This document shows, in pieces, positions 7,302 to 22,677 of a stretch of DNA of 32,000 bases (position 1 is its first letter; each line of letters opens with the position of its first letter). The position numbers were made by a program, and so were the translations under genes. The stretch comes from Opitutaceae bacterium (GTDB lineage Bacteria > Verrucomicrobiota > Verrucomicrobiia > Opitutales > Opitutaceae). Below the pieces are notes generated by a model. The model saw only the letters and a program-made list of their open reading frames with translations. It ran no database searches and was not told where the DNA came from. The stretch is taken from contig JAIXWF010000003.1 of NCBI GenBank assembly GCA_027482185.1, positions 376,809 to 408,808 of the forward strand, read 5' to 3'.

Positions 7302-7427
7302 GCAGTTGAGAGAGCTTGGTTGAGAGTTGAGAGCAGAACCGAACAGCCTCGGCGCATCTCTTTTCTGGCCAGGGCCTGAGCGCCGCTGGATTTTTCTCTC
7401 AACTCTCAACCGCAAACTCTCAGCTGC
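7302..7427. repeat. 126-nt hairpin element whose arms are four tandem heptads (GTTGAGA type / TCTCAAC type)
   Basis: Left arm heptads: GTTGAGA|GAGCTTG|GTTGAGA|GTTGAGA (7305-7332). Right arm heptads: TCTCAAC|TCTCAAC|CGCAAAC|TCTCAGC (7397-7424). Inner stem 7318-7333 / 7396-7411 is a perfect 16 bp. Outer stem 7302-7312 / 7417-7427 is 11 bp with one T:G pair. The two stems are separated by a 5x5 internal loop. The 62-nt apical part has its own pairing (7344-7347+7351-7355 with 7380-7388). The element starts 12 nt after the TonB-receptor stop. Confidence 0.85.
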
Positions 7428-7562
7428 ATAATCCCGGCCAAGGCGCGGCGTGCCGGCTGCACAAATTTCTGGCGCGCGCCCGCGCGCTGCGCACACTCCG
7501 CCCGTCCTCCGCGGCTCCCCCCGCCCGGAGTTTGCGTTTTCCCCACCCCTTTCTCGTTCCCC

Positions 7563-9242
7563 ATGGAAAATCTCACTTACGACGCCATCGTCGTCGGCTC
7601 CGGCATCAGCGGCGGCTGGGCCGCCAAAGAGCTCACGCAGAAGGGCCTCAAGGTCCTCCTTCTCGAACGCGGCCGCAACATCGAGCATGTCTCCGGTTAC
7701 AAGAACGCCACCTTGCCGCCGTGGCAGGTCCCGCACCGCGGCAAGGTGCCGACCGATCTGCGCGACGCGCATCCGGTCCAGCGCCGCGACTACATCCTCA
7801 ACGAGGTCAACTACGACTACTGGGAGAAGGAAGCCGACAGCCCTTACATCGAGAAGAAGCCCTTCGATTGGTTCCGCGGCTACCACGTCGGCGGCCGCTC
7901 CCTGATGTGGGGCCGGCAGAGCTACCGGTTCAGCGATTTCGATTTCGAGGCCAACGCCAAGGAGGGCGTCGCGATCGACTGGCCCATCCGTTACGCCGAC
8001 ATCGCGCCCTGGTACGACTACGTCGAGCGCTTCGCCGGCATCAGCGGCTCGAAGGAAAATCTCCCCCAGCTGCCCGACGGCCAGTTCCTCCCGCCGATGG
8101 AGCTCAACGTCGTCGAAAAGCACGTCGCCGCCCGCATCCGTACCCATTTCAAAGATACGCGGCGCATGATCATCGGCCGCGCGGCCAATCTCACCCAGCC
8201 GCACGAGGACCGCGTGAACTGCCAGTTCCGCAACAAGTGCTGGCTCGGCTGTCCCTTCGGCGCCTACTTCAGCACCCAGTCGTCGACCCTCCCGGCCGCA
8301 ATGAAGACGGGCAACCTCACGCTCCGGCCCTTCTCGCTCGTCACGCGGCTCGTGTACGACAAAGACGCGAAGCGCGCCCGCGGCGTCGAGGTGCTCGACA
8401 CCGAGACGCGCCAGACCGTCGAGTACAAGGCCAAGGTCGTCTTCCTCTGCGCCTCGGCCTTCAACTCGACCACGATCCTGATGCGCTCCGCCACCGACGT
8501 TTGGCCCGGCGGCCTCGGCAGCAGCTGCGGCGAACTCGGCCACAACGTCATGGACCACCACTTCCGCGCCGGCGCCAGCGGCCGCGTGGAAGGCTTCGAG
8601 GACAAGATCGTCTTCGGCCGCCGCCCCAACGGTTTCTACATTCCCCGTTTCCGGAATCTGTTCGGCGACCAACGCGGCTACACGCGCGGCTTCGGCTACC
8701 AGGGCAACGCCAGCCGCGAGGGCTGGGCCCGCGAGGTCGCCGAGCTCGGCATCGGCGCCCCGCTCAAGGAGGCGCTGCGCGAACCCGGCCAGTGGACCAT
8801 CGGCATGACGGGCTTCGGCGAGATTCTGCCGTACCACGCCAACCGCATCTCCCTCGACTGGAACACGCGCGACAAGTGGGGCCAGCCCGTCCTCGTCATG
8901 GATTGCGAGATCAAGGAGAACGAAAAGAAGATGCGCGTCGACATGATGGCCGACGCCGCCGAGATGCTCGAGGCCGCCGGCGTGAAGCAGGTGAAGCCCG
9001 CCGACGCCGGCTACAACTTCGGCCGCGGTATCCACGAGATGGGCACCGCCCGCATGGGCCGCGACCCGAAGACCTCCGTGCTCAACGCCCACAACCAAGT
9101 CTGGGAAGCGCCCAACGTGTACGTCACCGACGGCTCCTGCATGACCTCCGGCGCCTGCATCAATCCCTCCCTCACCTACATGGCGCTGACGGCGCGCGCG
9201 GCGGACCACGCCGTCGCCCAGCTCAAGAGCCGCAACCTCTGA
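7563..9242 (+). CDS. GMC-family FAD oxidoreductase (large subunit of a gluconate-2-dehydrogenase-like pair)
   Basis: ORF 7563..9242. N-terminal Rossmann motif YDAIVVGSGISGGWAAKELTQKGLKVLLLERG. About 560 aa with no signal peptide, followed 11 nt later by the matching small subunit. The 653-aa minus ORF 7248..9209 is its shadow. Confidence 0.9.
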   Translation: MENLTYDAIVVGSGISGGWAAKELTQKGLKVLLLERGRNIEHVSGYKNATLPPWQVPHRGKVPTDLRDAHPVQRRDYILNEVNYDYWEKEADSPYIEKKPFDWFRGYHVGGRSLMWGRQSYRFSDFDFEANAKEGVAIDWPIRYADIAPWYDYVERFAGISGSKENLPQLPDGQFLPPMELNVVEKHVAARIRTHFKDTRRMIIGRAANLTQPHEDRVNCQFRNKCWLGCPFGAYFSTQSSTLPAAMKTGNLTLRPFSLVTRLVYDKDAKRARGVEVLDTETRQTVEYKAKVVFLCASAFNSTTILMRSATDVWPGGLGSSCGELGHNVMDHHFRAGASGRVEGFEDKIVFGRRPNGFYIPRFRNLFGDQRGYTRGFGYQGNASREGWAREVAELGIGAPLKEALREPGQWTIGMTGFGEILPYHANRISLDWNTRDKWGQPVLVMDCEIKENEKKMRVDMMADAAEMLEAAGVKQVKPADAGYNFGRGIHEMGTARMGRDPKTSVLNAHNQVWEAPNVYVTDGSCMTSGACINPSLTYMALTARAADHAVAQLKSRNL

Positions 9243-9253
9243 TCTTCCCCGCC

Positions 9254-9820: not shown

Positions 9821-9850
9821 AGCCGCGGTCGCCGACCGCCTGCGGCGGCA

Positions 9851-9878
9851 GTGGCAAGGTGAAGGTTGAAAGTCGAAA
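9851..9878. repeat. tandem heptad array GTGGCAA|GGTGAAG|GTTGAAA|GTCGAAA
   Basis: Exact 7-nt period read directly from the sequence, in the gap between convergent genes (plus gene ends 9820, minus gene ends 9949). Confidence 0.8.
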
Positions 9879-9911
9879 GACCGATCCCCGAATCGCTCTT
9901 AGTTTCCGGCA

Positions 9912-9946
9912 GCTGACCGCTGATCGCTGACAGCTGATAGCTCAAA
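9912..9946. repeat. tandem heptad array GCTGACC|GCTGATC|GCTGACA|GCTGATA|GCTCAAA
   Basis: Five consecutive units with an exact 7-nt period, ending 2 nt before the stop codon of the permease gene. Contains two CAGCTG palindromes (9910-9915 and 9931-9936). Confidence 0.85.
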
Positions 9947-9948
9947 CC

Positions 9949-10911
9949 TTACACCTTCTCCTTCCCCTGCCGCAGCCGGTCCACGAACACGGCCACGATG
10001 ATCACGAGGCCGATGATGATTTCCTGGAAATAGGTCGGCCACCCCATCTGCTGCGAACCGTTGCGCAGCACGGCCATGATCAAGGCGCCGATCATCGAGC
10101 CGAGGATCGTGCCGACGCCGCCGTTCAGGCTCGCGCCGCCGATGATGACGGCGGCGATGATATCGAGTTCAAGGCCGACGGCGACGGTCGGATCGCCCTG
10201 CCGCAACCGCGAGAGCTGGAACAAGCCCGCGAGACCGAAGAAGCAGCCGGCGAGCGCGTAGATGCAGATTTTCAACCGCGTCGTCGGGATGCCGCAGAGC
10301 CGCGCCGTCGCCTCGTTCGAACCGAGGGCGAAGATGTGCCGCCCGAAGACGGTGTTGCGCAACATCACCGCGGTGAGCACCGCCAGGACCAACGCGACCC
10401 ACACGCCGGCCGGCAGCGCGTAGCCGAAGGGATCCGCCGTGGTCATCCAGGCATTGATCGGCGAGCTCTCGTAATTGACGGTCTGGTTGTCCGCGAGCCA
10501 CTTGGCCGAACCGCGCGCGACACCGAGCGTGCCGAGCGTGATGATGAACGGCGTCATCCGCAGACCCGCGATCGCCGCGCCGTTGAGCAAACCGATCAGG
10601 CCGCCCGAAAGGATCATCGCCAGCACCACCGGCGCCGTGCTCCAGCCTTGCTGGATGAGCAACGCGCCGACCACGCTCGTGAAGGCGATGCTCGAACCCA
10701 CCGACAGATCGATGCCGCCGCTGACGATGATCTTCGTCATGCCGAGGGCCCCGATTGCCACGATGACCGTCTGCGTGAAGATGGTCTTGAAGTTGTGATA
10801 CGTGAGGAAGAACTCGCGCGTCTCCGCCGGGATCGAGAACAGGGCAATCACGACGAGCAGGCCGAGAAAGGGACCGGCCTTCGCGAGCAGGGATTTCAGG
10901 GAGTCGTTCAT
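9949..10911 (-). CDS. sugar ABC transporter permease (RbsC/AraH family)
   Basis: ORF 9949..11052, trimmed to in-frame ATG 10911 (MNDSLKSLLAKAGPFLGLLVVIALF...). The longer start would overlap the upstream ATPase gene. Multi-pass hydrophobic protein typical of ribose-type permeases (GGIDLSVGS, ITLGTLGVARG). Confidence 0.85.
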   Translation of the reverse strand: MNDSLKSLLAKAGPFLGLLVVIALFSIPAETREFFLTYHNFKTIFTQTVIVAIGALGMTKIIVSGGIDLSVGSSIAFTSVVGALLIQQGWSTAPVVLAMILSGGLIGLLNGAAIAGLRMTPFIITLGTLGVARGSAKWLADNQTVNYESSPINAWMTTADPFGYALPAGVWVALVLAVLTAVMLRNTVFGRHIFALGSNEATARLCGIPTTRLKICIYALAGCFFGLAGLFQLSRLRQGDPTVAVGLELDIIAAVIIGGASLNGGVGTILGSMIGALIMAVLRNGSQQMGWPTYFQEIIIGLVIIVAVFVDRLRQGKEKV

Positions 10912-10958
10912 GGGCGCCGGGACGGGACGGAAAGGGCGTCTGCTGTGCGCATAAAGTC

Positions 10959-12467
10959 TCAGGTCGTGCCGGCGCTGCCGGTGGCCGTGCGCATGATCTC
11001 GGCCTCGCTCCACTCGGCGCGCGGGCGTACCGCCGCCAATTCGCCGCGGCACATCACGCCGATCGTGTCGCAGAGCCCGAGCAGCTCGGGCAGGTAGCTG
11101 CTGATCACGACCACGGCTTTGCCGGCGCCGGCCAGCTCGCCGATCAATTGGTAAATCTGCGCCTTGCTGCCGACGTCGATGCCGCGCGTCGGTTCATCGA
11201 GCAAAAAGATCCGCGCCGGGTGCTCGAGCAGCCGCGCGAGCGCGACTTTCTGCTGGTTGCCGCCGGACAATTGCCCGATCGGCTGCGCCGCGTTCCGGCA
11301 CTTGACGCGCAGGGTGTCGACCCAGCGCTGCGCCGTCGCCCGCTGGCGGCCGCCGTCGATCCAGCCGAAACGGCCGAACGCGCCGTGCTTGGTCAGCGTG
11401 AGATTGTCGGCGATGGATTGGCTCAGCATCAGGCCCTCCTCCTTGCGGTTCTCGCTGAGGAAACCGACCCCGTGGTCCCAGCGGTCGCGCGGCGTCGCGG
11501 CCCCGGCCGGCGCGCCCACGACGCAGACCTCGCCCGCGTCCGCGGCATCGAGGCCGAAAACCGTGCGCAACAGGTCCGTGCGGCCCGCGCCGATCAGGCC
11601 GGCCAGGCCGAAAATCTCGCCCGCCCGCACCTGCAGCGTCGCGCGCTTCAGCCGCGGCGCCGAGGCGCAGGCCTTCACGTCGAGCACCACGGCGCCCGGC
11701 GTGTGCGGGATGCGCGGATACAGGTCCTTGACCTCGCGGCCCGTCATGAGCGTCACGATGCGGTCGAGGCCCGCCGTCTTCATGTCGCCGGAGCCGACGG
11801 TCTCGCCGTCCTTCAGCACGGTGAAGCGGTCGGCGATGCGGCGGCATTCCTCGAGAAAATGGCTGATGTAGATGACGCTCACGCCCTGCGCGCGCAGGCG
11901 GCCGATCGCGGCGAAGAGCAACTCCGTGTCCGCCTGCGTCAGGCTGCTCGTCGGCTCGTCCATGATCAGGACCTTCGGCTTGGTCAGGAGCGCGCGCGCG
12001 ATCTCGATCACCTGCTGGGCGGCGATGGAAAACGCTCCCGCCGGCCGGTCGAGGTCGAGGCTTTCGTGCCCGAGCTGGGCGAGCGCGGCGCGCGCGCGTT
12101 CGCGCGAAGCCCGGCGGTCGACCCACCCGCCGCGGGCCGACTCGGCGCCGAGGAGGATGTTTTCCTCCGCGCTGAGGTGCAGCGCCAGGTTCAGTTCCTG
12201 GTAGATCATCGCGACGCCCTTCAGGCGGGCGTCGTGCGGATTGAGCGGCGTGTAGGGCGCGCCGCCCAGGGTCATTGTGCCGGCATCCGCGGCGTGCGCG
12301 CCGCTGAGCACCTTCATCAGCGTGCTCTTGCCGGCGCCGTTCTCGCCGATCAACGCGTGCACCTCGCCGGGCGCGAGCTCGAGCGAAACGCCGCGCAAGG
12401 CCTGCGTCGCGCCGAACGCCTTGCGGATCCCGTCGAGGCGGAGGGTGGCGGCGGCCGGGGACGTCAC
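10959..12467 (-). CDS. sugar ABC transporter ATP-binding protein, duplicated ABC domains (RbsA-like)
   Basis: ORF 10959..12467. Walker A GENGAGKSTLMKVLSG, signature LSGGNQQKVALAR, and a second domain with GLIGAGRT. The GTG start overlaps the TGA of the upstream binding-protein gene (GTGA at 12464-12467). Confidence 0.9.
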   Translation of the reverse strand: MTSPAAATLRLDGIRKAFGATQALRGVSLELAPGEVHALIGENGAGKSTLMKVLSGAHAADAGTMTLGGAPYTPLNPHDARLKGVAMIYQELNLALHLSAEENILLGAESARGGWVDRRASRERARAALAQLGHESLDLDRPAGAFSIAAQQVIEIARALLTKPKVLIMDEPTSSLTQADTELLFAAIGRLRAQGVSVIYISHFLEECRRIADRFTVLKDGETVGSGDMKTAGLDRIVTLMTGREVKDLYPRIPHTPGAVVLDVKACASAPRLKRATLQVRAGEIFGLAGLIGAGRTDLLRTVFGLDAADAGEVCVVGAPAGAATPRDRWDHGVGFLSENRKEEGLMLSQSIADNLTLTKHGAFGRFGWIDGGRQRATAQRWVDTLRVKCRNAAQPIGQLSGGNQQKVALARLLEHPARIFLLDEPTRGIDVGSKAQIYQLIGELAGAGKAVVVISSYLPELLGLCDTIGVMCRGELAAVRPRAEWSEAEIMRTATGSAGTT

Positions 12468-13441
12468 TTCAGGTATTTGTCGAGCGGCGGATTCACGATC
12501 TCGGCCATCTCGGGGGAATTGAAGTTTTCCTTCGTCACGAAACCGACGCCGGTGTCGACGAAGCCCTGGACCTTCTGGCCGCGGAGGACGGCGACCATGG
12601 TCTTCACGCCGAGGTAGCCCATGCGCATCGGGTTCTGCACGACCATGCCCTGCACGTGGCCGGCCTTGAGCCCGGCGTTGAGCGTCTCGCCGGAGTCGAA
12701 GGCGACGAAGGAGACCTTGCCGGCGAGACCGGCGTCGCGCAGCGCCAGCAGCATGCCGGCGGCGGCGGATTCGTTGGAAGCAAACACGCCCTGGACCTGG
12801 CGGCCGTAGCGGTTGAGCAGATTTTCCGCGGTGCGTTTCGCGCTGTCGCGGGTGGCGCCGGCGTGCTGGTCGGTCGAGAGCAGCTTGATGCCGGGGAAAT
12901 CCTTTTTCATGACCTCGAGGAAACCTTCCTCGCGCTCCTCGGTGCTGGCGGAGCCAACGGCGTAGCGGAGCATGATCGCGTTGCCCTTGCCGCCGAGCAT
13001 CTTGCCGAGATTGCGGGCGGCGATGCGGCCGCCTTCGCGGTTGTCGGTGGAGACGGAGCTGACGGGTGCTTTGGACTCGAGGCCGGAGTCGATGATGATT
13101 ACGGGGATCTTGCCGCGGACCGCGGTCTCGACCGGGGCGACGAGGCCCTTGCGGTCAAGCGGGGCGAGCACGATGCCGCTGACGCGCTGGGCGACGAAGT
13201 TTTCCACGACCTGGATCTGCTGCTCGCGGTCGTCCTCCTTGAGCGGGCCCTTCCAGATGATCTGCACGTTGACGCCCTCGGCCTTGAGTTCCTGTTCGGC
13301 CTTCTTCGCGCCGGCGTGGATCGATTTCCAGAATTCGTGCGTCGTGCCCTTCGGGATCACGGCGATCTTGTAGGACTCGGCGGCGCCGGCGGAAACCGCG
13401 GCGGCCAAGGAAAGGGAAAGCAGCTGGAGGAGTTTTTTCAT
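12464..13441 (-). CDS. periplasmic sugar-binding protein (RbsB-like, type I periplasmic binding fold)
   Basis: ORF 12464..13441. Signal peptide MKKLLQLLSLSLAAAVSAGAAES, then YKIAVIPKGTTHEFWKSIHAGAKKAEQEL. First gene of the binding protein-ATPase-permease operon. Confidence 0.9.
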   Translation of the reverse strand: MKKLLQLLSLSLAAAVSAGAAESYKIAVIPKGTTHEFWKSIHAGAKKAEQELKAEGVNVQIIWKGPLKEDDREQQIQVVENFVAQRVSGIVLAPLDRKGLVAPVETAVRGKIPVIIIDSGLESKAPVSSVSTDNREGGRIAARNLGKMLGGKGNAIMLRYAVGSASTEEREEGFLEVMKKDFPGIKLLSTDQHAGATRDSAKRTAENLLNRYGRQVQGVFASNESAAAGMLLALRDAGLAGKVSFVAFDSGETLNAGLKAGHVQGMVVQNPMRMGYLGVKTMVAVLRGQKVQGFVDTGVGFVTKENFNSPEMAEIVNPPLDKYLK

Positions 13442-14501: not shown

Positions 14502-15140
14502 ATGCTCTCGCTGAAAAAACTGTTCGGGAAAGACGACAAGTTCTTCGACCTGCTCGAAGCCGGAGCCGAAGAGGCCAAGACGAGCGTCACGTTGTTCGCC
14601 AATTACCTGAAGCAGAGCGCCGGCGGCTCCACGCCGCTCCAGCTGGACGAATTCATCCAGGCGCGCCGGAAGGAAAAACGCATCCGCGCGACGATGACGG
14701 AGGAGCTGAGCAAGACCTTCGTCACCCCGCTGGAACGCGAGGACATCGAGGCCCTGTCCTTCGCCCTCTACCGCATTCCCAAGATCGTCGAGAAAATCGT
14801 CGAGCGCCTCTCGATCTACCCGGGCCGCGTGCCGACCGCCGCGTTCCAGCGCCAGGCGGAACTGATGCTGCAGGCGGCCGATGCCGTCGTGTTCATGGTG
14901 AAACAGCTGCGCGGCGGCACGAACATCGAGAAGATCCGCGAGGCCAACGACCGGTTGCAGTACGCGGAAGGCGAAGCCGACAAGGTCATGCTCGCCCTGC
15001 TCAAGGAGCTGTACCACGGCCCCTACGACGCCAAGGAGCTCGTGATCCTCCAGGAACTTTACGAGATGGTGGAACAGGCGGTCGACCGCTGCCGCAACGC
15101 CGGCAACATCGTCGTCCAGATCGTCCTGAAGCATTCGTAA
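14502..15140 (+). CDS. DUF47 family protein (PhoU-like partner of Pit transporters)
   Basis: ORF 14502..15140. MLSLKKLFGKDDKFFDLLEAGAEEAKTSV is the characteristic DUF47 N-terminus. It lies immediately upstream of a Pit-type transporter gene, the usual pairing. Confidence 0.85.
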   Translation: MLSLKKLFGKDDKFFDLLEAGAEEAKTSVTLFANYLKQSAGGSTPLQLDEFIQARRKEKRIRATMTEELSKTFVTPLEREDIEALSFALYRIPKIVEKIVERLSIYPGRVPTAAFQRQAELMLQAADAVVFMVKQLRGGTNIEKIREANDRLQYAEGEADKVMLALLKELYHGPYDAKELVILQELYEMVEQAVDRCRNAGNIVVQIVLKHS

Positions 15141-16276: not shown

Positions 16277-16280
16277 GCCG

Positions 16281-16404
16281 CTGTCTTCGTTCCAAGACAG
16301 GGGACAGGATCGACAGGAGACAACCAAGCCGGATTCACCGGACGCAATTCCGGGACGGGATTCCTTCCTGTCGATCCCGGATCGGCCGTCCTGTCCTTCC
16401 TGTC
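16281..16404. repeat. GACAGGR / TCCTGTC heptad hairpin complex between convergent pitA and gatB
   Basis: Left arm: GACAGGG|GACAGGA|tc|GACAGGA|GAC (16296-16321). The complementary unit TCCTGTC occurs at 16366-16372, 16389-16395 and 16398-16404. There is a perfect 12-bp pairing 16307-16318 / 16366-16377 and an outer 6-bp pairing 16296-16301 / 16399-16404. A 7-bp hairpin CTGTCTT-cgttcc-AAGACAG (16281-16300) lies right after the pitA stop. Several alternative pairing registers are possible. Confidence 0.8.
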
Positions 16405-16436: not shown

Positions 16437-17939
16437 TCAGTTCGTCGCGAGCAGCTTCCGCAGCGTCTCATCGACGGCCTTGGGGTTGGCCTTGCCCTTC
16501 GCGGCTTTCATGATCGGGCCCTTGAACGCGTTGATCGCGCTGTCCTTGCCGGATTTGAACTCCGCCAACGCCTTTGGGTTCGCCGCGATCGAATCGCGGC
16601 ACCATTGCTCGAGTTCGTTGCTGTCCGTCGGCGCCGCCTTGAGGCCTTTGCGATCCGCAATTGCTTCCGGGGAATCGCCCGTGGCGAACATCTCGACGAA
16701 GACTTCCTTCGCGGCCTGGTTCAGAATCGTGCCCGCATCGACGAGCTTCACGAGCGCAGCCAGCTGCGCGGGGCCGACCTTCGATTGCCCCAGTTCCAAT
16801 TTCGCGGCGCCCAATTCGCGCAGCAGGTCGTTGACGATCCAGTTGCCCACGGCCTGGGCCTTGCCGGCGCCGGCGGCGGTTGCGGCCGCCTCGAAGTAAT
16901 CGGCCAGCGCGCGGTCCCACACCAGCACCGAGGTCAACGTGTACGGCAGCTGGTACTGCTCGAAAAACCGGCGCTGCTTCGCGAACGGCAACTCGGGGCA
17001 TTCGGCCTGCAGGCGCGTTTTCCACGGCTCGTCGACGACGACCGGCATCAAATCGGGATCCGGGAAATAGCGGTAGTCGTGCGCCTCTTCCTTGGTGCGG
17101 AGGGACTGCGACGTGCCGGTCATGCCGTCGTAGTCGCGCGTTTCCTGCACGATCGTGCCGCCGCGCTCGAGCACGGCGAGCTGGCGCTTGATCTCGTGCG
17201 CGATGCCGTCGCGCACAAAGGAGATCGAGTTGAGGTTCTTCAGCTCGACCTTGGTGCCGAGCTTCGTCTGGCCCACGGGGCGGATGGAAATGTTGGCGTC
17301 GCAGCGCAACTGCCCCTTCTCCATGTCGCAGTCCGAGATGCCGCCGTAGACCATCGTCGCGCGCAGCGACGTGAGATAGGCGAAGGCCTCGTCGGCCGTG
17401 TGCATCGCCGGATCGGATACGATCTCCATCAGCGGCGTGCCGGCGCGGTTGTAGTCGACGAGCGAGTCGGAGGCGCCGTGGTTGAGTTTGCCCACATCCT
17501 CCTCGAGGTGGATGCGCGTGAGCGGGATGCGCTTGTGCTCGCCCATGACGTTGCGGGCGGAGCCGGGCAGCTCGATCTCGACCTCGCCGCCGAGGCAGAT
17601 CGGCTGGTCGTACTGGGAGATCTGGTAGTTCTTGGGCGAGTCCGGATAGAAATAGTTTTTCCGGTCCCATTTGCAGACCGGCGCGATGCGGCAACCGAGG
17701 AGGAGGCCGGCCTTGATGATCGCGTCGAGGGCGGCCTTGTTCATCACCGGCAACGCGCCCGGCAGGGCGAGGACGGTGGGATCGGTGAGCGTGTTGGGCT
17801 CGTGGCCGTACCCCGTGGCGACGCGCGTGAAGACCTTGGACCGGGCCTTGATCTGGACGTGGACCTCGAGACCGATGACGGCTTCGTAGGAAGAAGAAGA
17901 AAGAGACACAGAGGACACGGAGGGAATCGCGGAGTTCAC
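16437..17939 (-). CDS. gatB: Asp-tRNA(Asn)/Glu-tRNA(Gln) amidotransferase subunit B
   Basis: ORF 16437..17939. YEAVIGLEVHVQIKARSKVF is the canonical GatB N-terminus, and the YqeY-like C-terminal domain is present. The exact start is uncertain. The only in-frame candidates are GTG codons at 17939, 17918 and 17909, all inside the repeat arm. No ATG precedes the conserved YEAVIGLE. Confidence 0.9.
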   Translation of the reverse strand: MNSAIPSVSSVSLSSSSYEAVIGLEVHVQIKARSKVFTRVATGYGHEPNTLTDPTVLALPGALPVMNKAALDAIIKAGLLLGCRIAPVCKWDRKNYFYPDSPKNYQISQYDQPICLGGEVEIELPGSARNVMGEHKRIPLTRIHLEEDVGKLNHGASDSLVDYNRAGTPLMEIVSDPAMHTADEAFAYLTSLRATMVYGGISDCDMEKGQLRCDANISIRPVGQTKLGTKVELKNLNSISFVRDGIAHEIKRQLAVLERGGTIVQETRDYDGMTGTSQSLRTKEEAHDYRYFPDPDLMPVVVDEPWKTRLQAECPELPFAKQRRFFEQYQLPYTLTSVLVWDRALADYFEAAATAAGAGKAQAVGNWIVNDLLRELGAAKLELGQSKVGPAQLAALVKLVDAGTILNQAAKEVFVEMFATGDSPEAIADRKGLKAAPTDSNELEQWCRDSIAANPKALAEFKSGKDSAINAFKGPIMKAAKGKANPKAVDETLRKLLATN

Positions 17940-17943
17940 AGAG
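17907..17943. repeat. distal inverted-repeat arm of the GxxExxY cassette (CACAGAGGA|CACGGAGGG|aat|CGCGGAGTT|CACAGAG)
   Basis: 17907-17923 (CACAGAGGACACGGAGG) matches the reverse complement of 18333-18349 (CACAGAGGTCACGGAGG) at 16 of 17 positions. With one 1-nt indel, two more units also align (CGCGGAG~CACGGAG and CACAGAG~CACGGAG). The arm overlaps the GxxExxY stop codon and the first 11 codons of the longest gatB ORF. A 19-nt all-purine tract (17888-17906) lies next to it. Confidence 0.85.
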
Positions 17944-18313
17944 CAAGGCGCTTCAGGCCACGGGTCAAAATCGTTGCGCGGAAATTCAGGAGCAGTCCGA
18001 TCCGGCAGCGGGAAAACTTCAGGTAGGTGAGGACCTGCGCCTCATGGACGTCCAGCAATGCATCGACCGCCTTCAATTCGACCACCACCTGGCCGCCGAC
18101 CACAAAATCGAGGCGATAGGCATCCCCGATCACCAGGTCCTTGTAACCGACCGGACAGAGTTTCTGTTCCTCGAAAGCCAGACCGCGCAGGACAAATTCG
18201 TGGGCCAAGGCACACTGGTATGCGGACTCCAGCAGCCCCGGCCCGAGTTCGCGGTGCACCTCGATCGCAGCTCCGATCACCTGCTCCGTGAGGTGATTGA
18301 TATCGGGATTCAT
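17936..18313 (-). CDS. GxxExxY family protein (PD-(D/E)XK nuclease-like fold)
   Basis: Last 125 codons of ORF 17936..19042, starting at ATG 18313. MNPDINHLTEQVIGAAIEVHRELGPGLLESAYQCALAHEF carries the G-x-x-E-x-x-Y motif (GLLESAY). YRLDFVVGGQVVVELKAV gives a D...ExK catalytic-type motif. A length of about 125 aa is typical of the family. The upstream 243 codons of the listed ORF are an out-of-frame shadow of gatA. Confidence 0.85.
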   Translation of the reverse strand: MNPDINHLTEQVIGAAIEVHRELGPGLLESAYQCALAHEFVLRGLAFEEQKLCPVGYKDLVIGDAYRLDFVVGGQVVVELKAVDALLDVHEAQVLTYLKFSRCRIGLLLNFRATILTRGLKRLAL

Positions 18314-18349
18314 CTCCGTGGCCTCCGTGCCTCCTCCGTGACCTCTGTG
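18314..18349. repeat. proximal inverted-repeat arm of the GxxExxY cassette (CTCCGTG|G|CCTCCGTG|CCT|CCTCCGTG|A|CCTCTGTG)
   Basis: Read on the coding (minus) strand it is CACAGAGGT CACGGAGGAGG CACGGAGGC CACGGAG directly followed by the ATG. That gives four GGAG(G) Shine-Dalgarno-like units. It fills most of the 44-nt gatA-GxxExxY spacer. Confidence 0.85.
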
Positions 18350-18357
18350 CTCCAAAA

Positions 18358-19836
18358 TCACAGCACAGGGGTGCGCAGCTTCCAGTCGTGGCCGCGTTCG
18401 TAGGCTTGGGCGATGGCGAGGAGGTCGGCTTCCTTGAAGGGCTGGCCGATGAGTTGCACACCGATCGGCAGCGACGACTTCGTAAATCCGCAGGGCAAGC
18501 TCAGCGCCGGCAGGCCCGCGAGGTTCACGCCGATCGTGTAGATGTCGCACAGGTACATCGCCAGCGGGTCGCTCTTTTCCCCGAGTTTGAACGCCGGGAT
18601 CGGCGACGTCGGCGTGATCAGCGCGTCGACTTCCTTGTACGCATTCAGGAAATCCTGCCGGATCAACGTGCGCACTTTCTGGGCGCGCAGGTAGTAGGCG
18701 TCGTAGTAGCCGCTCGAGAGCACGTAGGTGCCGAGGATGATGCGGCGCTTCACTTCCGCGCCGAAACCCTCGGCCCGCGATTTGAAGTAGAGGTCGACGA
18801 TGTCTTTCGCGTCCGCGGAACGGTGGCCGTAGCGGATGCCGTCGTAGCGCGCCAAGTTCGAGGACGCCTCGGCCGTCGCGATGATGTAATAGGTATCGAG
18901 GCAGTACTGCGTGTGCGGCAGCGAGACTTCGCGGATCTCGCAGCCTTGGGCTTTGTAAAACGCAATCGCCTGCTCCACCGCCGCGCCGATTTCCGGATCG
19001 AGGCCGGCGCCGAAGTACTCCTTCGGAATGCCCAACTTCCAAGGTCCGCGCCGCGCCGCGAGTTCACGGCGGTAATCGGGAATCTCGGCCCGGTACGACG
19101 TCGAATCGCGTTCGTCGTGGCCGGCGATGGCGCCGAGCACGATCGCGTTGTCCTCGACGGTGCGCGTGAAGGGACCGATTTGGTCGAGCGACGACGCGTA
19201 TGCGATCAGACCGTAACGGGAAACCAATCCGTAGGTCGGCTTCAGGCCGACGACGCCGCAGAGCGCGGCCGGCTGGCGGATCGAGCCGCCGGTGTCGGAG
19301 CCGAGCGTCGCGATCGCCTCACCCGCCGCGAGCGCCGCGGCGCTGCCGCCGGACGAACCGCCGGGCACGCGCGTGACGTCCCACGGATTGCCCGTCGGGT
19401 GGAAGGCGGAATTCTCCGTCGACGAACCCATCGCGAACTCGTCGCAGTTCAGGCGGCCGTAGAGCACGGCGCCGGCGGCCTTGAGGCGCGCGGTCACGGT
19501 CGCGTCGTAGGGCGAGACGAAGTTCGCGAGCATCTTGCTCGAGGCGGTCAGGGGCTGGTCTTTGACAGCAATGACGTCCTTGAAACCGATCGGGATGCCG
19601 TCGAGCGGTCCGCGCGCCTGCCCCGCCGCGCGGCGGGCATCGGATGCGGCGGCCTGCGCGAGCGCGTCGGCCGGGTCGGCGGAATTGAAAGCGCGCACCC
19701 GCGGTTCGACGGCGGCGGCGCGGGCGATGACGGCCTGCGCGAGTTCGACCGCGCTCACCTCGCGCGCCGCGAGGGCGGCGGCGAGCTCGGCAATGGTGCG
19801 GTAGTGGAGCGGGACGGCGGACATGGCGGCGCTCAT
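18358..19836 (-). CDS. gatA: Glu-tRNA(Gln)/Asp-tRNA(Asn) amidotransferase subunit A
   Basis: ORF 18358..19836. Amidase signature region [45 protein letters not shown]. The ATG at 19836 overlaps the gatC TGA (ATGA). An alternative ATG lies at 19824. Confidence 0.92.
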
Positions 19837-20123
19837 TCGACGACCTTGGGCACGACGACCATGTTCTCGCGCTGCGCCGGCGCGTTGCGGAGCGCCTGGT
19901 CGGCGGGCAAGCCCGGACGGGCGACGTCCTCCTGCCAGACATTGTGCACGGCGAACGCGTGGGCCGAGGGCTCGACGCCGGCGACGTCGACCTTGGCGAG
20001 CTGTTCGATGTGGTGCAGCACGCTGCCGAGCTGCACGGCGAAGGTCGCCTTTTCCTCGGGCGTCAGGGCGACGCGCGCGAGTTTGGCGACGTGGTCGATG
20101 TCGAGTTGGGGCGCGGAGGACAT
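19833..20123 (-). CDS. gatC: Asp/Glu-tRNA amidotransferase subunit C
   Basis: ORF 19833..20192, trimmed to ATG 20123. The 96-aa product [55 protein letters not shown] ... VVPKVVE matches the typical GatC length and pattern. The start lies 4 nt after the pheT TAA. Confidence 0.85.
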
Positions 20124-20127
20124 GGCG

Positions 20128-22587
20128 TTACTTGCGGATCTGCCAACCGGTGGTCTGCACGACGTCGTCCTGCACCTTCTGGAAGACGGCATTCACTTCC
20201 TCGTCGGTCAGCGTCCGTTCCGCGGACCGGAACACGAGGTTGAACGCGAGGCTCTTCTTGCCCTCGGGCAGGCCGGGGCCCGTGTACACGTCGAAGACGG
20301 CGACCTTCTCGACGGCGAACGTGTTGCCCGCGGCGGCGCGCGCCGACTTGAGCAGGGCTTTCTGCACTTCGGCCGAAGTCGTCGCGGCGTCGACCACGAG
20401 GGCGACGTCGCGCAGCGCGGCCGGCAAAAGGCTGAAGTCGGCGAAACGGCGGCGCGCGGCGTCGGCGGAGAGTTTCTCCGGCAAAATCGCGAAGAGCCCG
20501 GCATAGACCTTGCCCTTGATCCCGAGGGATTTCACGAGCGCCAGATTCACGAGACCGAAGCGGGCCTGCCAGCCGTGGGCGATGTCGCCGGCGCCGGCGG
20601 ACTGGCCCTCTTGCCAACCGGGCACGCCGGCGAGCGGCGTCAGCGGCTGGCGCGCGAAATCGACGCCGGCGGCGGCGGCGATGGCGGCGAGGTGGTGCTT
20701 GGCGGCGTAGAAATCGGCGCCTTCGCGCTTGAGCCAGGAACGTTCGTCGACGGCCTCGGCGAGGAGGAAGGCGACGGCGGCGCACTCGACCGTTTGGCCG
20801 TTGCGCTCAAGGAAGATGCGGCCGGTCTCGGCGAGCCGGGACACGGCGACGCCGCGGGATTGGTTCAATTGCAACGAAGCCAGCAAACCGCCGACCAAGG
20901 TGGGCCGGAGATGCGATTGCTCTTCGACAAAGGGATTGGCCAAGCCGAGTTCGGCGGTCGCGGCGGCGGTGGTCCACGCGGCGACTTCCTTGGCGGGACG
21001 GAGCGTGTAGTTCACGCACTCGTGGAAATCGTGGCCGACGAGGTAGTCGGTCGCGCGGCGGTTGAAGAGGACGATCGGGTCGTCGTCGGTCAGCAGGCCG
21101 GGCGATTGCACGACGGCGGCGGGGATCTTCTCCGTGCCGTAGAGGCGCAGCACTTCCTCGACGAGGTCGATCGGGCGGTCGAGGTCGTCGCGCCAACTCG
21201 GCACGGACACCGTCCAGGCCAAGCCGCGGGCGGGCTGCTCGGTCGGCTCCTCGCGGGTGACGTTGAGCTCGAGGGACTCGAAGGCGGCGCGCATCTGCGC
21301 GGCGGGAATCGCGAAGCCGAGCTTCTCGTTGATGAAGGCCTCGGTGACGACGATCTCGCGCTGCCACGGTACGTCTCCGCCGACCCGATACGCCGGGCCG
21401 ACAACCTGGCCGCCGGCGGTGGCCAGAATGAGATCGACGGCGCGGTACGCGGCTTCGAGGGCGCCGTGCGGATCGACGCCGCGTTCATAGCGGTAGGACG
21501 AATCGGAACTGAGGGCCAGTTTGCGGGCCGTGGCGCGGATCGACTGCTTCTTGAAGATCGCGCATTCGAGCACCAGGTCGGTGGTGTCGGCGGACACGCC
21601 GGAGTTTTCCCCGCCCATGATGCCGGCGACGACGACGGGCTTGGCCGCGTCGGCGATGACGAGCATGTCGGGCGTGAGCGCGCGCTCCTTGCCGTCGAGG
21701 GTGACGATTTTCTCGTCCGCGGCGGCGCGGCGGACGACGATGCGGTTGCCGCCGAGCTTCTTCGCGTCGAAGGCGTGCAACGGCTGGCCCGTTTCGAGCA
21801 TCACGTAGTTGCCGACGTCGACGACGTTGTTGATCGGGCGGAGGCCGACGGCCTTGAGCCGTTCCTGGAGCCACGCGGGGCTGGGGCCGATCTTGATGCC
21901 CGTGATGACATGGGCCGTGTAGAGCGGGCAGTCCTCGGGGGCGTGGACCTCGACGCCGGCGAGCAGGTCGGCGCGGGCCGGACCGCCGACTTCGCCGCGG
22001 AATTGCTCCTGCGGGTAAACCAGCGGCAGCTTGAACCAGGCGGCGAGCTCGCGCGCGATGCCGAGGTGGCACTGGCAATCGGGGCGATTGGGCGTGATCT
22101 CGATGTCGAAGACCGTGTCGCCCGGCGGCAGCACGTCGTTGATCGGCGTGCCGAGGGCGGGTTTGCCCTCGAGAATGAGGAGGCCGGCGTGGTCGGAGCC
22201 GAGGCCGATTTCGTCCGGGGCGCACATCATGCCGTCGGAGAGCTGGCCGCGGATCTTGGACTGCTTGATCTGGAAATTGCCGGGCAGGACGGCGCCGGGC
22301 AGCGCGACGGGCACGCGGTGGCCGGCGTCGCAGTTGGCCGCGCCGCAGACGATCGTCTTCACGCCGCCGGCGGGGCCGATGTCGACGGTGCAGACGGAGA
22401 GTTTGTCGGCGTTCGGGTGTTTGCCGCGGGTGAGGATCTCGCCGACGACGACGTGCTCGAGTTTCGGCGCGCCCGTGGTGACGACGCCTTCGACCTCGAA
22501 ACCGAGGAAGGTGACGGCGCGGGAGATTTCATCGACGGAGGCGTCGAGGGCGACGTAGTCGCGGAGCCAGTTGAGGGAAATTTTCAT
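20128..22587 (-). CDS. pheT: phenylalanine--tRNA ligase beta subunit
   Basis: ORF 20128..22587 (819 aa). MKISLNWLRDYVALD is the canonical PheT N-terminus. The tRNA-binding, B3/4, B5 and FDX-ACB regions are recognisable. The 1402-aa plus ORF 18388..22596 is a shadow. Confidence 0.92.
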   Translation of the reverse strand: MKISLNWLRDYVALDASVDEISRAVTFLGFEVEGVVTTGAPKLEHVVVGEILTRGKHPNADKLSVCTVDIGPAGGVKTIVCGAANCDAGHRVPVALPGAVLPGNFQIKQSKIRGQLSDGMMCAPDEIGLGSDHAGLLILEGKPALGTPINDVLPPGDTVFDIEITPNRPDCQCHLGIARELAAWFKLPLVYPQEQFRGEVGGPARADLLAGVEVHAPEDCPLYTAHVITGIKIGPSPAWLQERLKAVGLRPINNVVDVGNYVMLETGQPLHAFDAKKLGGNRIVVRRAAADEKIVTLDGKERALTPDMLVIADAAKPVVVAGIMGGENSGVSADTTDLVLECAIFKKQSIRATARKLALSSDSSYRYERGVDPHGALEAAYRAVDLILATAGGQVVGPAYRVGGDVPWQREIVVTEAFINEKLGFAIPAAQMRAAFESLELNVTREEPTEQPARGLAWTVSVPSWRDDLDRPIDLVEEVLRLYGTEKIPAAVVQSPGLLTDDDPIVLFNRRATDYLVGHDFHECVNYTLRPAKEVAAWTTAAATAELGLANPFVEEQSHLRPTLVGGLLASLQLNQSRGVAVSRLAETGRIFLERNGQTVECAAVAFLLAEAVDERSWLKREGADFYAAKHHLAAIAAAAGVDFARQPLTPLAGVPGWQEGQSAGAGDIAHGWQARFGLVNLALVKSLGIKGKVYAGLFAILPEKLSADAARRRFADFSLLPAALRDVALVVDAATTSAEVQKALLKSARAAAGNTFAVEKVAVFDVYTGPGLPEGKKSLAFNLVFRSAERTLTDEEVNAVFQKVQDDVVQTTGWQIRK

Positions 22588-22592
22588 GTGAA

Positions 22593-22677
22593 GTAGCGGG
22601 TAGCGTGTAGTGAGTAGCGGGTAGTCCGGGCAGCGGTTAGGAATGATGCTCGCTACTCGCTACGCGCTACTCGCTAC
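22593..22677. repeat. 31-bp hairpin built from tandem heptads (GTAGYGN x5 / YCGCTAC x4) filling the pheS-pheT spacer
   Basis: Left arm: GTAGCGG|GTAGCGT|GTAGTGA|GTAGCGG|GTAGTCC (22593-22627). Right arm: TCGCTAC|TCGCTAC|GCGCTAC|TCGCTAC (22650-22677). Positions 22593-22623 pair with 22677-22647 as 26 Watson-Crick pairs plus 5 G:T pairs on the plus strand. The loop is 23 nt (22624-22646). Confidence 0.9.

Follow-up and report, generated by a model that had tools for sequence, protein, structure and literature searches.

The heptanucleotide arrays in a 32,000-nt stretch of Opitutaceae bacterium DNA (hereafter the window) are explained here as hairpin cassettes, similar to the intervening sequences (IVS) of 23S rRNA, that are placed between cistrons, together with gene-less derivatives of such cassettes. 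We regard this explanation as reasonably likely. One cassette in the window, between gatA and gatB, retains its GxxExxY gene. At least one of the three long hairpins is a gene-less cassette leftover, and probably all three are. The observations behind this explanation are the architecture itself, its spread over phyla, its presence or absence at orthologous spacers, one deletion derivative and the concerted change of repeat units.

An earlier note on this DNA had placed arrays of exact 7-nt period at four sites, and all of its coordinates were correct against the sequence. Tandem Repeats Finder reported period-7 arrays at 7319-7333, 7396-7422, 9910-9942, 16295-16322, 22593-22624 and 22649-22677. 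A lag-p self-match scan of the window (score of at least 14) detected period-7 arrays at 9912-9957, 22593-22624 and 22649-22677, three in all, compared to 0.0 in 20 dinucleotide shuffles; the same scan gave no arrays of periods 5, 8, 10 or 11 in the window. The arrays of sites 1 and 3, which are short and imperfect with three good units, scored below 14. In a comparison set of 80 related loci, 39 period-7 arrays were detected by the lag-p scan versus 0 in shuffles, and periods 5, 8, 10, 11 and 13 were at background. A stricter census rule (at least 3 copies of a 6-mer spaced 7-12 nt, plus at least 2 reverse-complement copies within 700 nt) yielded 26 elements when the window was taken together with the 80 related loci, whereas every one of 5 shuffles gave 0.

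The units in the window were GTTGAGA (site 1), GNNGAAR and GCTGAYN (site 2), GACAGGR (site 3) and GTAGCGR (site 4). As previously suggested, all array sites are intergenic in the window annotation, at gene ends or between cistrons, and complementary arrays face each other at three of the four, with long hairpins at sites 1, 3 and 4 and direct arrays at site 2. Fold energies from a sliding scan of the window mainly followed GC content and were uninformative. Rfam searches at gathering thresholds gave zero matches in the window, including no rRNA. Promoter and terminator scans of the window found nothing at the four array sites; 11 terminator-like matches, none of them at these sites, were at the shuffle level in number.

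Table 1. Coordinates of arms, loops and the retained gene in the window.
Feature	Positions	Strand	Units or content	Basis
Site 1 upstream purine-rich arm	7302..7333	+		Sequence, fold, inverted-repeat search (I1)
Site 1 loop	7334..7393	+	~60 nt; small internal hairpin, no ORF	Sequence, fold
Site 1 downstream arm	7394..7427	+	TCTCAAC TCTCAAC CGCAAAC TCTCAGC	Sequence, fold, inverted-repeat search
Site 2 array A	9851..9878	+	GTGGCAA GGTGAAG GTTGAAA GTCGAAA	Sequence
Site 2 array B	9912..9946	+	GCTGACC GCTGATC GCTGACA GCTGATA GCTCAAA	Tandem Repeats Finder, sequence, lag-p score 21
Site 3 purine-rich arm	16296..16321	+	GACAGGG GACAGGA tc GACAGGA GACA	Sequence, fold, census
Site 3 complementary arm	16366..16404	+	TCCTGTC at 16366, 16389, 16398	Sequence, fold, census
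GxxExxY cassette downstream arm	17903..17944	-	Sense strand GCTCTGTGaaCTCCGCGattccCTCCGTGtcCTCTGTGtctc	Sequence
GxxExxY gene	17936..18313	-	125 aa, PD-(D/E)XK-like	Profile matches PF13366, TIGR04256
GxxExxY cassette upstream arm	18314..18353	-	Sense strand ggagCACAGAGgtCACGGAGgaggCACGGAGgcCACGGAG, then ATG	Sequence, duplex energy
Site 4 downstream arm	22593..22627	-	Sense CTACCCG CTACTCA CTACACG CTACCCG CTAC	Sequence, fold, lag-p scan
Site 4 loop	22628..22649	-		Comparison with gene-bearing cassettes
Site 4 upstream arm (pheS-pheT operon sense)	22650..22677	-	GTAGCGA GTAGCGC GTAGCGA GTAGCGA	Sequence, fold, lag-p scan

The evidence for gene loss comes from site 4, in the pheS-pheT spacer. Its upstream arm begins 12 nt downstream of the pheS stop (22690-22692), and its downstream arm ends 5 nt ahead of the pheT ATG (22587). 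The predicted fold has an energy of -64 kcal/mol (z -9.0) and a stem of 27-31 bp (31 bp on the + strand) with three mismatches, all A-C on the mRNA strand. At least 11 other Opitutaceae genomes have GTAGCGR arms, each genome at 1-4 sites. In the orthologous pheS-pheT spacer of relatives, a ~120-aa four-helix-bundle gene (TIGR02436, "23S rRNA IVS protein") is located between such arms: GTAGCGR...YCGCTAC arms surround a four-helix-bundle gene in loci L009, L023, L047, L048 and L068, and in the last four the TIGR02436 ORF in the pheS-pheT loop scores 121 bits. Among 54 related genomes, this spacer is tight (~10 nt) in 25, carries inserts of 55-180 nt in 20 (12 of them with strong hairpins) and holds cassettes of 437-517 nt in 9, five with a four-helix-bundle gene and four with a GxxExxY gene. 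Gene-bearing cassettes have GAGCATG at the junction of arm and start codon; the window has GAGCATC there on the sense strand (22645-22651) which is a former GAGCATG junction with the start codon destroyed. The GAGCAT junction is kept in three further gene-less elements (L009 7925, L048 9855 and L055) and altered in three more (L033, L066 and L053). In addition, the 5' end of the four-helix-bundle gene matches the loop of the L009 pheS-pheT element with 75% identity along 95 nt (E 2e-14), indicating a gene remnant. On comparison with its gene-bearing orthologs, site 4 is best explained as a four-helix-bundle cassette whose gene was lost by internal deletion. Long pheT-gatC inserts in relatives were also considered as cassettes and were rejected as ordinary opposite-strand genes.

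The gatA-gatB spacer contains the cassette on which the whole interpretation turned, and its description in the note, as an inverted design of ~9-nt units with a gene in the loop, was accurate. The GxxExxY gene has the orientation of both neighbors and matches Pfam PF13366 (5.8e-40, 136.7 bits) and TIGR04256 (140.5 bits, cutoff 35). Its arms have a period of 9 and form an upstream/downstream duplex of -56 kcal/mol (z -3.9). The upstream arm begins 4 nt after the gatA stop (18358-18360). The first unit of the downstream arm holds the stop codon of the GxxExxY gene (17936-17938), and the last unit holds a GTG (17907-17909), the probable start of gatB, with which it is in frame. The gene is present at the same place in ~18 related loci, with 51-82% identity, and is bracketed by CACRGAG/CTCYGTG arrays in ~18 Opitutaceae. 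In 77 genomes, the gatA-gatB spacer was tight in 30, cassette-sized in 19, occupied by a gene-less hairpin (z < -3) in 16 and weak in 11, including one-arm remnants. The CACRGAG core of the arms is kept in Opitutaceae, Bacteroides finegoldii and Bernardetia, and remains constant between phyla despite ~43% protein identity. In Gemmatirosa, one CACGGAG is located just upstream of the start of the GxxExxY gene, with an adjoining CGCAGAG hairpin. In each of these four groups the gene is wedged, co-oriented, amid housekeeping genes.

Two unrelated gene families share one design: TIGR02436/PF05635 (four-helix bundle) with 7-nt units and TIGR04256/PF13366 (GxxExxY) with ~9-nt units that have a CACRGAG core. 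The order is a purine-rich array with units of 7-10 nt, a gene of ~120 aa and a complementary array, and the ORF is exactly bracketed: the upstream array runs up to the start codon, and the downstream one begins at or over the stop codon. Only a few bases separate a cassette from the stop codon of the preceding gene and from the start of the following gene, and its orientation is that of the host operon. We compared 45 cassettes, in which four-helix-bundle genes had period-7 arms (best period 7 in 12 of 15 upstream and 13 of 15 downstream flanks) and GxxExxY genes had period-9 arms (best period 9 in 15 of 30 flanks on either side). The upstream arm was richer in purine than the downstream arm in 43 of the 45 and often contained GGAG or AGGAG; the arm duplexes had energies of -30 to -70 kcal/mol, with z < -3 in 30 of the 45.

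This design was seen in Verrucomicrobiota, Bacteroidota, Cyanobacteriota and Pseudomonadota, and is probably present in Gemmatimonadota as well. Four-helix-bundle genes are flanked by RGTCAGR/TCCTGAC heptamers on plasmids of Aulosira, Trichormus and Nostoc, and by GACRGAK heptamers, close to the site 3 unit, on an Azospirillum plasmid, where the energy of the arm duplex varies with the choice of flank from -55 to -69 kcal/mol (z -4.7). The TIGR02436/PF05635 family is related to XCC0516 and Avd, and XCC0516 (PDB 2GSC) is homologous to the Opitutaceae four-helix-bundle protein (E 8e-19). In Xanthomonas, a GGGAATC heptamer array is located between accB and XCC0516 and overlaps the start of the latter (supplement of PMC4692102).

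The upstream arm of site 1, with GTTGAGA at 7305, 7319 and 7326 and one diverged unit in between, begins 12 nt after the stop of a TonB-dependent receptor gene (7288-7290); a GMC oxidoreductase gene starts at ~7563, past the downstream arm. The site folds with -71 kcal/mol (z -6.7) into a stem of 17 + 11 bp. GTTGAGA arrays were detected in at least 120 metagenome contigs of 35-70% GC, as empty hairpins or around a four-helix-bundle gene; contigs L113, L131 and L099 have four-helix-bundle genes flanked by arrays of this type, and 116 of the 120 loci among the matches listed have no such gene nearby. In the 80 related loci, GTTGAGA and GACAGG were missing from a core-cluster search, and blastn-short with the elements of sites 1-3 and the loops of sites 1, 3 and 4 gave just chance-level matches of 13-17 nt. 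Site 1 appears to be a gene-less hairpin of the 7-nt cassette type of four-helix-bundle genes, and is probably a relic. At site 3, the stop of a PHO4 phosphate-transporter gene (16274-16276) is followed by a small 7-bp hairpin (16281-16300) and then by the purine-rich arm, and gatB, on the - strand, has its stop codon at 16437, near the complementary arm. The fold has -64 kcal/mol (z -4.8), with no ORF within. The site 3 pattern had 0 matches in viral contigs, and a regular-expression search over all DNA examined returned the Azospirillum cassette and one unrelated array only. Site 3 looks like a gene-less hairpin of the 7-nt type and is probably also a relic, its sole link to cassettes being the likeness of its unit to that of one Azospirillum cassette.

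Site 2 was placed outside the cassette assignment: by its sequence, it consists of two 7-nt arrays in direct orientation, with a unit that is widespread. Array A is flanked by convergent genes for gluconate-2-dehydrogenase subunit 3 (stop 9820) and an ABC permease (stop 9949). Arrays A and B are direct relatives (G-Y-T-GA-W-N), not complementary, and fold z-scores of -0.5/+0.3 gave no hairpin. GCTGAYN arrays were found in at least 120 IMG/VR contigs, and all 120 loci among the matches listed were without a cassette-type gene nearby; GCTGAYN/NRTCAGC arrays in IMG/VR are often back-to-back hairpins or end right at start codons. After rotation, GCTGATA is one base off TAACTGA. That most arrays of the site 1 and site 2 units elsewhere lack a gene counts against the cassette explanation, since arrays may exist independently of cassettes.

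The arms of an element resemble each other as closely as the units inside one arm. Core identity over 7 nt was 0.53 between arms, 0.52 inside an arm and 0.19 between elements, consistent with a local process that keeps the arms alike, one of the two options in the note. Gene-less elements that share the left junction with gene-bearing ones differ from them in the core of every unit, in both arms; units inside one element change in concert, and old relics therefore look private. For compensatory arm-to-arm change, which the note had suggested looking for, there was no evidence: arms paired at 0.87 in the best register and at 0.82 when slid by 7 or 14 nt, and this register-shift test gave no sign of position-by-position compensation, repeated units leaving the alignment register arbitrary. 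Over 26 elements there was no sense-strand bias in fold energy or in G-U pairs (85 sense versus 104 antisense). Given this lack of strand bias and the A-C mismatches on the mRNA strand at site 4, selection on a sense RNA stem is not visible, and the strand comparison was set aside as favoring neither side.

Among known systems, the cassettes are closest in gene content to the 23S rRNA IVS of Coxiella and Leptospira ('S23p'), which have the same loop gene family (TIGR02436/PF05635) as the cassettes of relatives. The Coxiella IVS is 428-444 nt long, with a gene of this family in the loop and a terminal-inverted-repeat stem of 28 bp that RNase III cuts mid-stem (PMC4990558). IVS and cassettes are similar in total size (~430-450 nt), and both have terminal inverted repeats forming a ~28 bp stem around the ORF, with a stem of 27-31 bp at site 4 and of 17 + 11 bp at site 1; like the cassettes, IVS are sporadic, are regarded as selfish and show ORF decay (PMC4990558). 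However, IVS reside in helix 25 or 45 of 23S rRNA, whereas the window sites are all between protein-coding genes. Unlike IVS, the cassettes have arms made of tandem 7-nt arrays, common gene-less derivatives and a second, unrelated gene family (GxxExxY) that uses the design.

Similarities to known heptanucleotide repeats (cyanobacterial STRR, GGGAATC of Xanthomonas, GGGGAYT of Nostoc and TAACTGA of Beggiatoaceae) include the exact 7-nt period, which is above chance here, intergenic location near an upstream ORF and copy number that differs among relatives. The window units match none of STRR1-3, GGGAATC or TAACTGA. The earlier statement that inverted heptad arrays had not been described in a high-GC genome does not hold: X. 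campestris has 186 GGGAATC-type arrays, and in 70 cases two of them converge at close range, in inverted orientation (Rehm et al. 2015, PMC4692102); one Xanthomonas array abuts XCC0516. Those reports deal with a single unit for each genome and draw no connection to an enclosed gene, whereas here many units are tied to two families. Like REPIN-RAYT systems and MITEs, the cassettes form inverted intergenic pairs, with a repeat-flanked gene beside many gene-less copies, and gene-less copies can arise by internal deletion in MITEs, as seen here. In contrast to both, the cassettes have no transposase or RAYT and showed no target-site duplication, their arms of short units pair in many registers, and the enclosed genes are multi-copy and belong to two families with different periods. 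Free-standing homing-endonuclease genes are likewise small, co-oriented genes between conserved genes with patchy presence at orthologous sites, and GxxExxY resembles them in its PD-(D/E)XK nuclease fold, but they are not bracketed by inverted arrays and the four-helix-bundle protein is not a nuclease. We know of no nuclease activity or homing site for GxxExxY, and of no enzymatic activity of the four-helix-bundle protein that could move DNA.

Co-orientation suggests that cassettes are transcribed along with the host operon. In the transcript, the two arrays would form a stem that is probably a substrate of RNase III, which would cut it as in the rRNA elements with the same gene family; RNase III excision has been demonstrated for the 23S rRNA IVS and would apply to cassettes by analogy. 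Excision from the host RNA would make a cassette tolerated inside operons. Cassettes may spread as selfish elements. Arrays may turn over by slippage, with arms kept alike through selection for pairing or through arm-to-arm template switching; such turnover and homogenization could account for the idiosyncratic units of old gene-less relics. No target-site duplication was seen at cassette junctions in orthologous pheS-pheT spacers, which counts against the cassette explanation.

Several other explanations were weighed. It is rather unlikely that arrays are primary and autonomous, acting between cistrons as host or phage cis-acting signals for RNA processing, stability or translation, with small genes that lodge in or borrow them. 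The abundance of GCTGAYN/NRTCAGC arrays in IMG/VR contigs and the 116 of 120 listed GTTGAGA loci, all with no such gene nearby, would fit such signals, as would the location of TAACTGA direct repeats mostly just upstream of start codons (PMC4679880) and the purine-rich upstream arms, often with GGAG or AGGAG. However, the decayed gene 5' end inside one gene-less hairpin implies that the gene came first there, the period follows the gene family (7 versus 9), and the core is tied to the gene family across phyla while orthologous spacers of close relatives are empty; the strand bias expected of an RNA signal was not seen. A neutral by-product, in which replication slippage prefers units of 7 nt, one arm is copied onto the other by fold-back template switching (quasi-palindrome correction) and functionless arrays accumulate where harmless, would leave unexplained the start-to-stop bracketing of two particular gene families, the ~9 nt of GxxExxY and the retention of CACRGAG across phyla at ~43% protein identity, and slippage accounts for the growth of arrays, not for their origin. 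We hold it to be improbable, although in many bacteria no other long simple repeats are as over-represented as heptanucleotides, for which polymerase slippage has been proposed as the cause (as cited in PMC4679880 and PMC4692102), arms pair in any register with no position-specific compensation, units are homogenized inside elements, and array copy number and length differ among relatives.

The view of the earlier note, that each locus builds a private heptamer hairpin de novo, sharing nothing with other loci and with no tie to a dispersed family, was contradicted for sites 4, 1 and 2 by the recurrence of their units in many genomes and by the orthology of site 4 to gene-bearing cassettes; it is now very unlikely, even with the site 1 and site 3 units missing from the 80 related loci and with unit identity of 0.19 between elements against 0.53 within. 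Location of hairpins at gene ends could point to ordinary intrinsic terminators, and REPINs, moved by a RAYT transposase, are likewise inverted pairs in intergenic DNA (PMC3116915). Both are very unlikely: no stem is followed by a T-tract, the terminator scan was blank at the four loci, the genes on either side of sites 1 and 4 are co-transcribed, the hairpin-enclosed genes are four-helix-bundle or GxxExxY genes rather than RAYTs, and the arms consist of tandemly arrayed units instead of one conserved palindrome.

An extension of the cassette explanation, which we offer tentatively, is that tandem units serve as multi-copy recognition sites for the protein of the enclosed gene, 7-nt units for a pentameric four-helix-bundle protein and ~9-nt CACRGAG units for a putative GxxExxY nuclease. 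The cassette would then be a transposase-free selfish element of a type not recognized before, whose gene-less copies are served in trans, and its decay products may be behind much of the long-known heptanucleotide excess in intergenic DNA of bacteria (STRR, GGGAATC and perhaps TAACTGA).

STRR repeats were first described around 1990 and have no assigned function, and TIGR02436 and TIGR04256, for which no role is known, can number dozens of copies in one genome. The present data join three separate puzzles, namely the heptanucleotide excess, these two role-less families of small proteins and the hairpin-bounded rRNA intervening sequences, and gene-less hairpins at the same sites as cassettes can be read as cassette relics. 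Xanthomonas had already provided a high-GC example of inverted heptamer arrays; no paper tying heptamer arrays to these gene families was found in a literature search that had most subscription journals outside its reach. The cassettes also bear on annotation. Such genes have been read as partners of their neighbors, e.g., 'between cmr3 and cmr2' (PMC3936711); cassette genes next to functional genes may be mere insertions.

The period-7 arrays of the window are real and non-random, and the best explanation of the structures that they form is that these are hairpin cassettes resembling IVS elements, or gene-less relics of such cassettes. In a cassette, a purine-rich array, a gene of about 120 aa and a complementary array follow one another; the gene encodes either a four-helix-bundle protein (TIGR02436/PF05635) or a GxxExxY protein (TIGR04256/PF13366). 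All heptamer coordinates in the earlier note agreed with the sequence, and Tandem Repeats Finder recovered period-7 arrays at each of the four sites. The excess was assessed with a lag self-match scan (match +1, mismatch -1, score of at least 14, each lag), using 20 dinucleotide shuffles as control. Three period-7 arrays were detected in the window versus 0.0 in the shuffles, and none for periods 5, 8, 10 or 11; signals at periods 6, 9 and 12 reflected codon periodicity, and the arrays of sites 1 and 3, with three good units each, remained under the threshold. In 80 related Opitutaceae loci (1.29 Mb), 39 period-7 arrays were found versus 0 in shuffles, with only background at periods 5, 8, 10, 11 and 13 (1, 1, 3, 3 and 0 arrays). 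Period 7 is special across Opitutaceae. A stricter census of window and related loci, which called for a 6-mer in at least 3 copies spaced 7-12 nt and its reverse complement in at least 2 copies no more than 700 nt away, yielded 26 elements versus 0 in each of five shuffles.

The window has a GC content of about 67%. Compared with the GatB proteins of 80 Opitutaceae genomes (Verrucomicrobiota), its own reaches no more than 87% identity, which assigns the window to that family. A single minus-strand run extends from rplT to gatB and, as had been proposed, the gene map puts sites 1-4 and the GxxExxY gene at gene ends or between cistrons. Site 2 formed no hairpin, its arrays A and B being direct relatives of one another rather than complementary. 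Terminator and promoter scans detected nothing terminator-like or promoter-like at sites 1-4, and an Rfam search of the window gave no matches.

Array sites, Pfam-assigned genes and smaller features of the window
Feature	Position	Strand	Remark
TonB-dependent receptor	ends 7290	+	
Site 1, GTTGAGA	7302-7427		fold -71 kcal/mol, z -6.7
GMC oxidoreductase	7563-9242	+	
Gluconate 2-dehydrogenase subunit 3	ends 9820	+	
GC-rich hairpin (GCCGCGGTCGCCGACCGCCTGCGGCGGCAGTGGC)	9822-9855		directly 3' of the preceding stop codon, just 5' of the site-2 arrays; no T-tract
Site 2, GNNGAAR and GCTGAYN	9851-9946		fold z -0.5
ABC sugar transporter	9949-13441	-	
DUF218	13640-14431	+	
PhoU-like	14502-15140	+	
PHO4 phosphate transporter	15209-16276	+	
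Site 3, GACAGGR	16296-16404		fold -64 kcal/mol, z -4.8
Site-3 loop	16331-16364		13-nt tandem repeat, 2.5 copies (GGATTCCCGGACG); folds into small hairpins by itself
gatB	16437-about 17909	-	
GTG, probable gatB start	17907-17909	-	in last CTCTGTG unit of cassette downstream arm
GxxExxY	17936-18313	-	
gatA	18358-19836	-	
gatC	19833-20192	-	
pheT	20128-22587	-	
Site 4, GTAGCGR	22593-22677		fold -64 kcal/mol, z -9.0; + strand, 31-bp stem
pheS	22690-23784	-	
rplT	23861-24244	-	

Site 4 links these arrays to a gene. Its unit, GTAGCGR / YCGCTAC, was present in the period-7 array list of related Opitutaceae loci in at least 11 other genomes, with up to four sites in a single 21-kb locus (L009). Where the arms lay about 366 nt apart, they enclosed a gene of 118-121 aa for a four-helix-bundle protein, a distant relative of Avd and a homologue of XCC0516 (PDB 2GSC, E 8e-19). 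In four related loci (L023, L047, L048 and L068), this cassette occupied the pheS-pheT spacer in the position and orientation of site 4. The pheS-pheT element of L009 kept the GTAGCGR arms, and over 95 nt its loop matched the gene's 5' end at 75% identity (E 2e-14); it is a deletion derivative of the cassette. Site 4 (as GAGCATC) and three further elements lacking the gene retain the 'GAGCAT(G)' junction of arm and start codon, and another three have it in altered form.

Spacer lengths at pheS-pheT and gatA-gatB fell into three classes: tight, mid-size insert and cassette-size. Among 54 genomes, 25 pheS-pheT spacers were tight (about 10 nt), 20 were mid-size (55-180 nt; 12 were hairpins with z < -3) and nine were cassette-size (437-517 nt; five four-helix-bundle, four GxxExxY). 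For gatA-gatB (77 genomes), we found 30 tight spacers, 16 gene-less hairpins with z < -3, 11 weak cases (some one-armed) and 19 cassette-size spacers (18 GxxExxY, one four-helix-bundle); one further spacer of about 3 kb contained other genes. Elements started 3-14 nt 3' of the upstream stop codon, and no target-site duplication was seen at their junctions in these spacers. Two gatA-gatB spacers, L013 (6005-6077) and L028 (8906-8955), had only the pyrimidine-rich arm (…CCTCCGTGTCCTCTGTGTCC…), and these remnants suggest decay via loss of gene and upstream arm together.

The GxxExxY gene that the window has between gatA and gatB was found at this position in about 18 related loci (51-82% identity), always with (NN)CACRGAG units upstream that end at the start codon, and CTCYGTG units downstream, whose first copy includes the stop codon. 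A second GxxExxY subfamily (arms RCGAAG) occupied the pheS-pheT spacer of five genomes, and a third had ACAGAAT arms. Outside Opitutaceae, GxxExxY genes were co-oriented between housekeeping genes: radA and an FAD protein gene in Bacteroides finegoldii, ade and a guanylyltransferase gene in Bernardetia, and fabD and fabG in Sphingomonas. At about 43% protein identity to the window gene, the Bacteroides and Bernardetia genes had the same CACAGAG / CTCTGTG arms, and that of Gemmatirosa had one CACGGAG just 5' of the start and an adjoining CGCAGAG hairpin.

In the window, the GTG within the cassette arm is in frame with gatB (V/M-SLSSSS-YEAVIGLEVH). Several relatives also lack an ATG in the stretch from the arm to YEAV, and the host gene thus seems to have adopted a start codon brought in by the insertion. 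The sole public contig encoding exactly the window GxxExxY protein, L001 (GCA_013565635.1, JACCDQ012192012.1), has flanking gatA and gatB genes at 98% and 95% identity. It is tiny (1,167 bp) and belongs to an assembly of millions of contigs, which makes contamination from a near relative of the source organism its probable origin.

The units of sites 1 and 2 also recurred. An exact search for GTTGAGAGTTGAGAG (site 1) matched at least 120 metagenome contigs, whose GC content was 35-70% among the matches listed; several (L087, L096 and L104) had empty hairpins built like site 1, and in others (L113, L131 and L099) GTTGAGA-type arrays flanked four-helix-bundle genes. The site-2 pattern (GCTGAYN x4) was present in at least 120 IMG/VR contigs, often as NRTCAGC...GCTGAYN hairpins between phage genes or as an array ending at a start codon, with no cassette gene nearby among the matches listed. 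One 34-kb putative phage contig, 3300045936_000120 (L221, L246 and L249), had at least 18 GCTGAYN / NRTCAGC arrays, many intergenic and some ending at start codons. The site-3 pattern had no match in viral contigs, and its unit, GACAGGR, is similar to GACRGAK, the arm unit of an Azospirillum plasmid cassette with a four-helix-bundle gene. The view that each array is private to its locus was thus wrong for sites 1, 2 and 4, the last being orthologous to gene-bearing cassettes; for site 3 it is unproven.

Plasmid four-helix-bundle genes of other phyla were bracketed likewise. Those of Aulosira, Trichormus and Nostoc punctiforme had RGTCAGR heptamers upstream and TCCTGAC-type ones downstream, the first downstream unit including the stop codon; a Picosynechococcus gene between cmr2 and cmr3 had 8-nt units. 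In Xanthomonas campestris, a GGGAATC array is located 6 nt downstream of accB and runs into the XCC0516 start (Rehm et al. supplement, PMC4692102). On plasmid gamma of Nostoc sp. PCC 7120 (L331), the four-helix-bundle gene at 15088-15438 belongs to a cassette without a stem: its ACTTCAA-type upstream and CTTCTGC / CCTCTGC downstream heptamer arrays lack complementarity (duplex -3 to -5 kcal/mol). Among 45 cassettes, with 55 nt analyzed on either side, the best period was 7 for four-helix-bundle genes (12/15 upstream, 13/15 downstream) and 9 for half of the GxxExxY genes (15/30 on each side). The upstream arm was richer in purine in 43 cassettes (means 0.61 vs 0.36), and arm pairing reached z < -3 in 30. 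Gene matches in Opitutaceae loci were co-oriented with the host operon, except a distant four-helix-bundle match without arms (L072).

Heptamer stems can pair in many registers: in 20 hairpins, arms in their best register were complementary at 0.87, a shift of 7 or 14 nt lowered this to 0.82, and off-period shifts gave 0.28. This test revealed no base-by-base compensation between arms. A local process that keeps the arms alike, proposed in the earlier note, was supported: cores drawn from one arm were identical with a probability of 0.52 and cores from opposite arms of an element with 0.53, against 0.19 for cores of different elements. Such a process makes old relics look private. In the 9-nt superfamily, cores of gene-bearing cassettes were almost always CACAGAG or CACGGAG; those of gene-less hairpins were CACGAAA, CACGGAA, CGCGAAA, CGCGGAG, CGCGGAT, CGCAAAG or CACAAAG. 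Four gene-less gatA-gatB elements (L017, L018, L025 and L051) had the left junction 'TGA-TTTTTT-GCC' in common with gene-bearing L003, L039 and L016, but a different core in every unit of both arms, which points to derivation in situ followed by concerted change; a second insertion may instead have replaced the cassette.

Among studied systems, the ORF-bearing 23S rRNA IVS comes closest. That of Coxiella (428-444 nt) has terminal inverted repeats forming a 28-bp stem, cut mid-stem by RNase III, and a loop with a decaying gene of the same four-helix-bundle family; it is considered selfish (PMC4990558). By analogy, the cassettes would be co-transcribed with the host operon and the paired arrays would be an RNase III substrate; if so, cleavage would explain why cassettes are tolerated inside essential operons. 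Fold energies and G-U counts of the 26 elements showed no sense-strand bias, which lends this step no help. The repeated cores may also, or instead, serve as protein-binding sites, as suggested by a period specific to each gene family and by a CACRGAG core conserved between phyla.

Several components were already known: an excess of heptanucleotide repeats in bacteria, with slippage as proposed cause (as cited in PMC4679880 and PMC4692102), TAACTGA repeats in Beggiatoaceae (PMC4679880), and 23S_rRNA_IVP genes, both wedged between cas genes and within the rRNA insertions of CPR bacteria. Inverted heptad arrays, of which the earlier note knew no description in a high-GC genome of this kind, are on record in high-GC Xanthomonas, with 186 GGGAATC-type arrays and 70 cases of two close arrays in inverted orientation (PMC4692102). 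The connection of arrays with four-helix-bundle or GxxExxY genes is possibly new; our literature search found no paper making it, which is weak evidence because most subscription journals lay outside its reach.

Further arrays were noted in related loci. Two very long CGGAGGT arrays in L043 (10993-11230 and 17822-18100; 160 and 198 nt), in the same orientation and 6.7 kb apart, both precede one and the same tail of about 80 nt (…TTTCTCTGCGTCTCTGAGTCTCYGCGTGAGCTTGGATCG…) and resemble a larger repeat element present twice. One intergenic region of L029 (15511-15707) contains adjacent GAATGAC x5, RGTGACC/AATGACC x12 and AATCATA x4 arrays, all without a partner; (AATGACC)n is complementary to TTGGTCA, the STRR2 unit of cyanobacteria.
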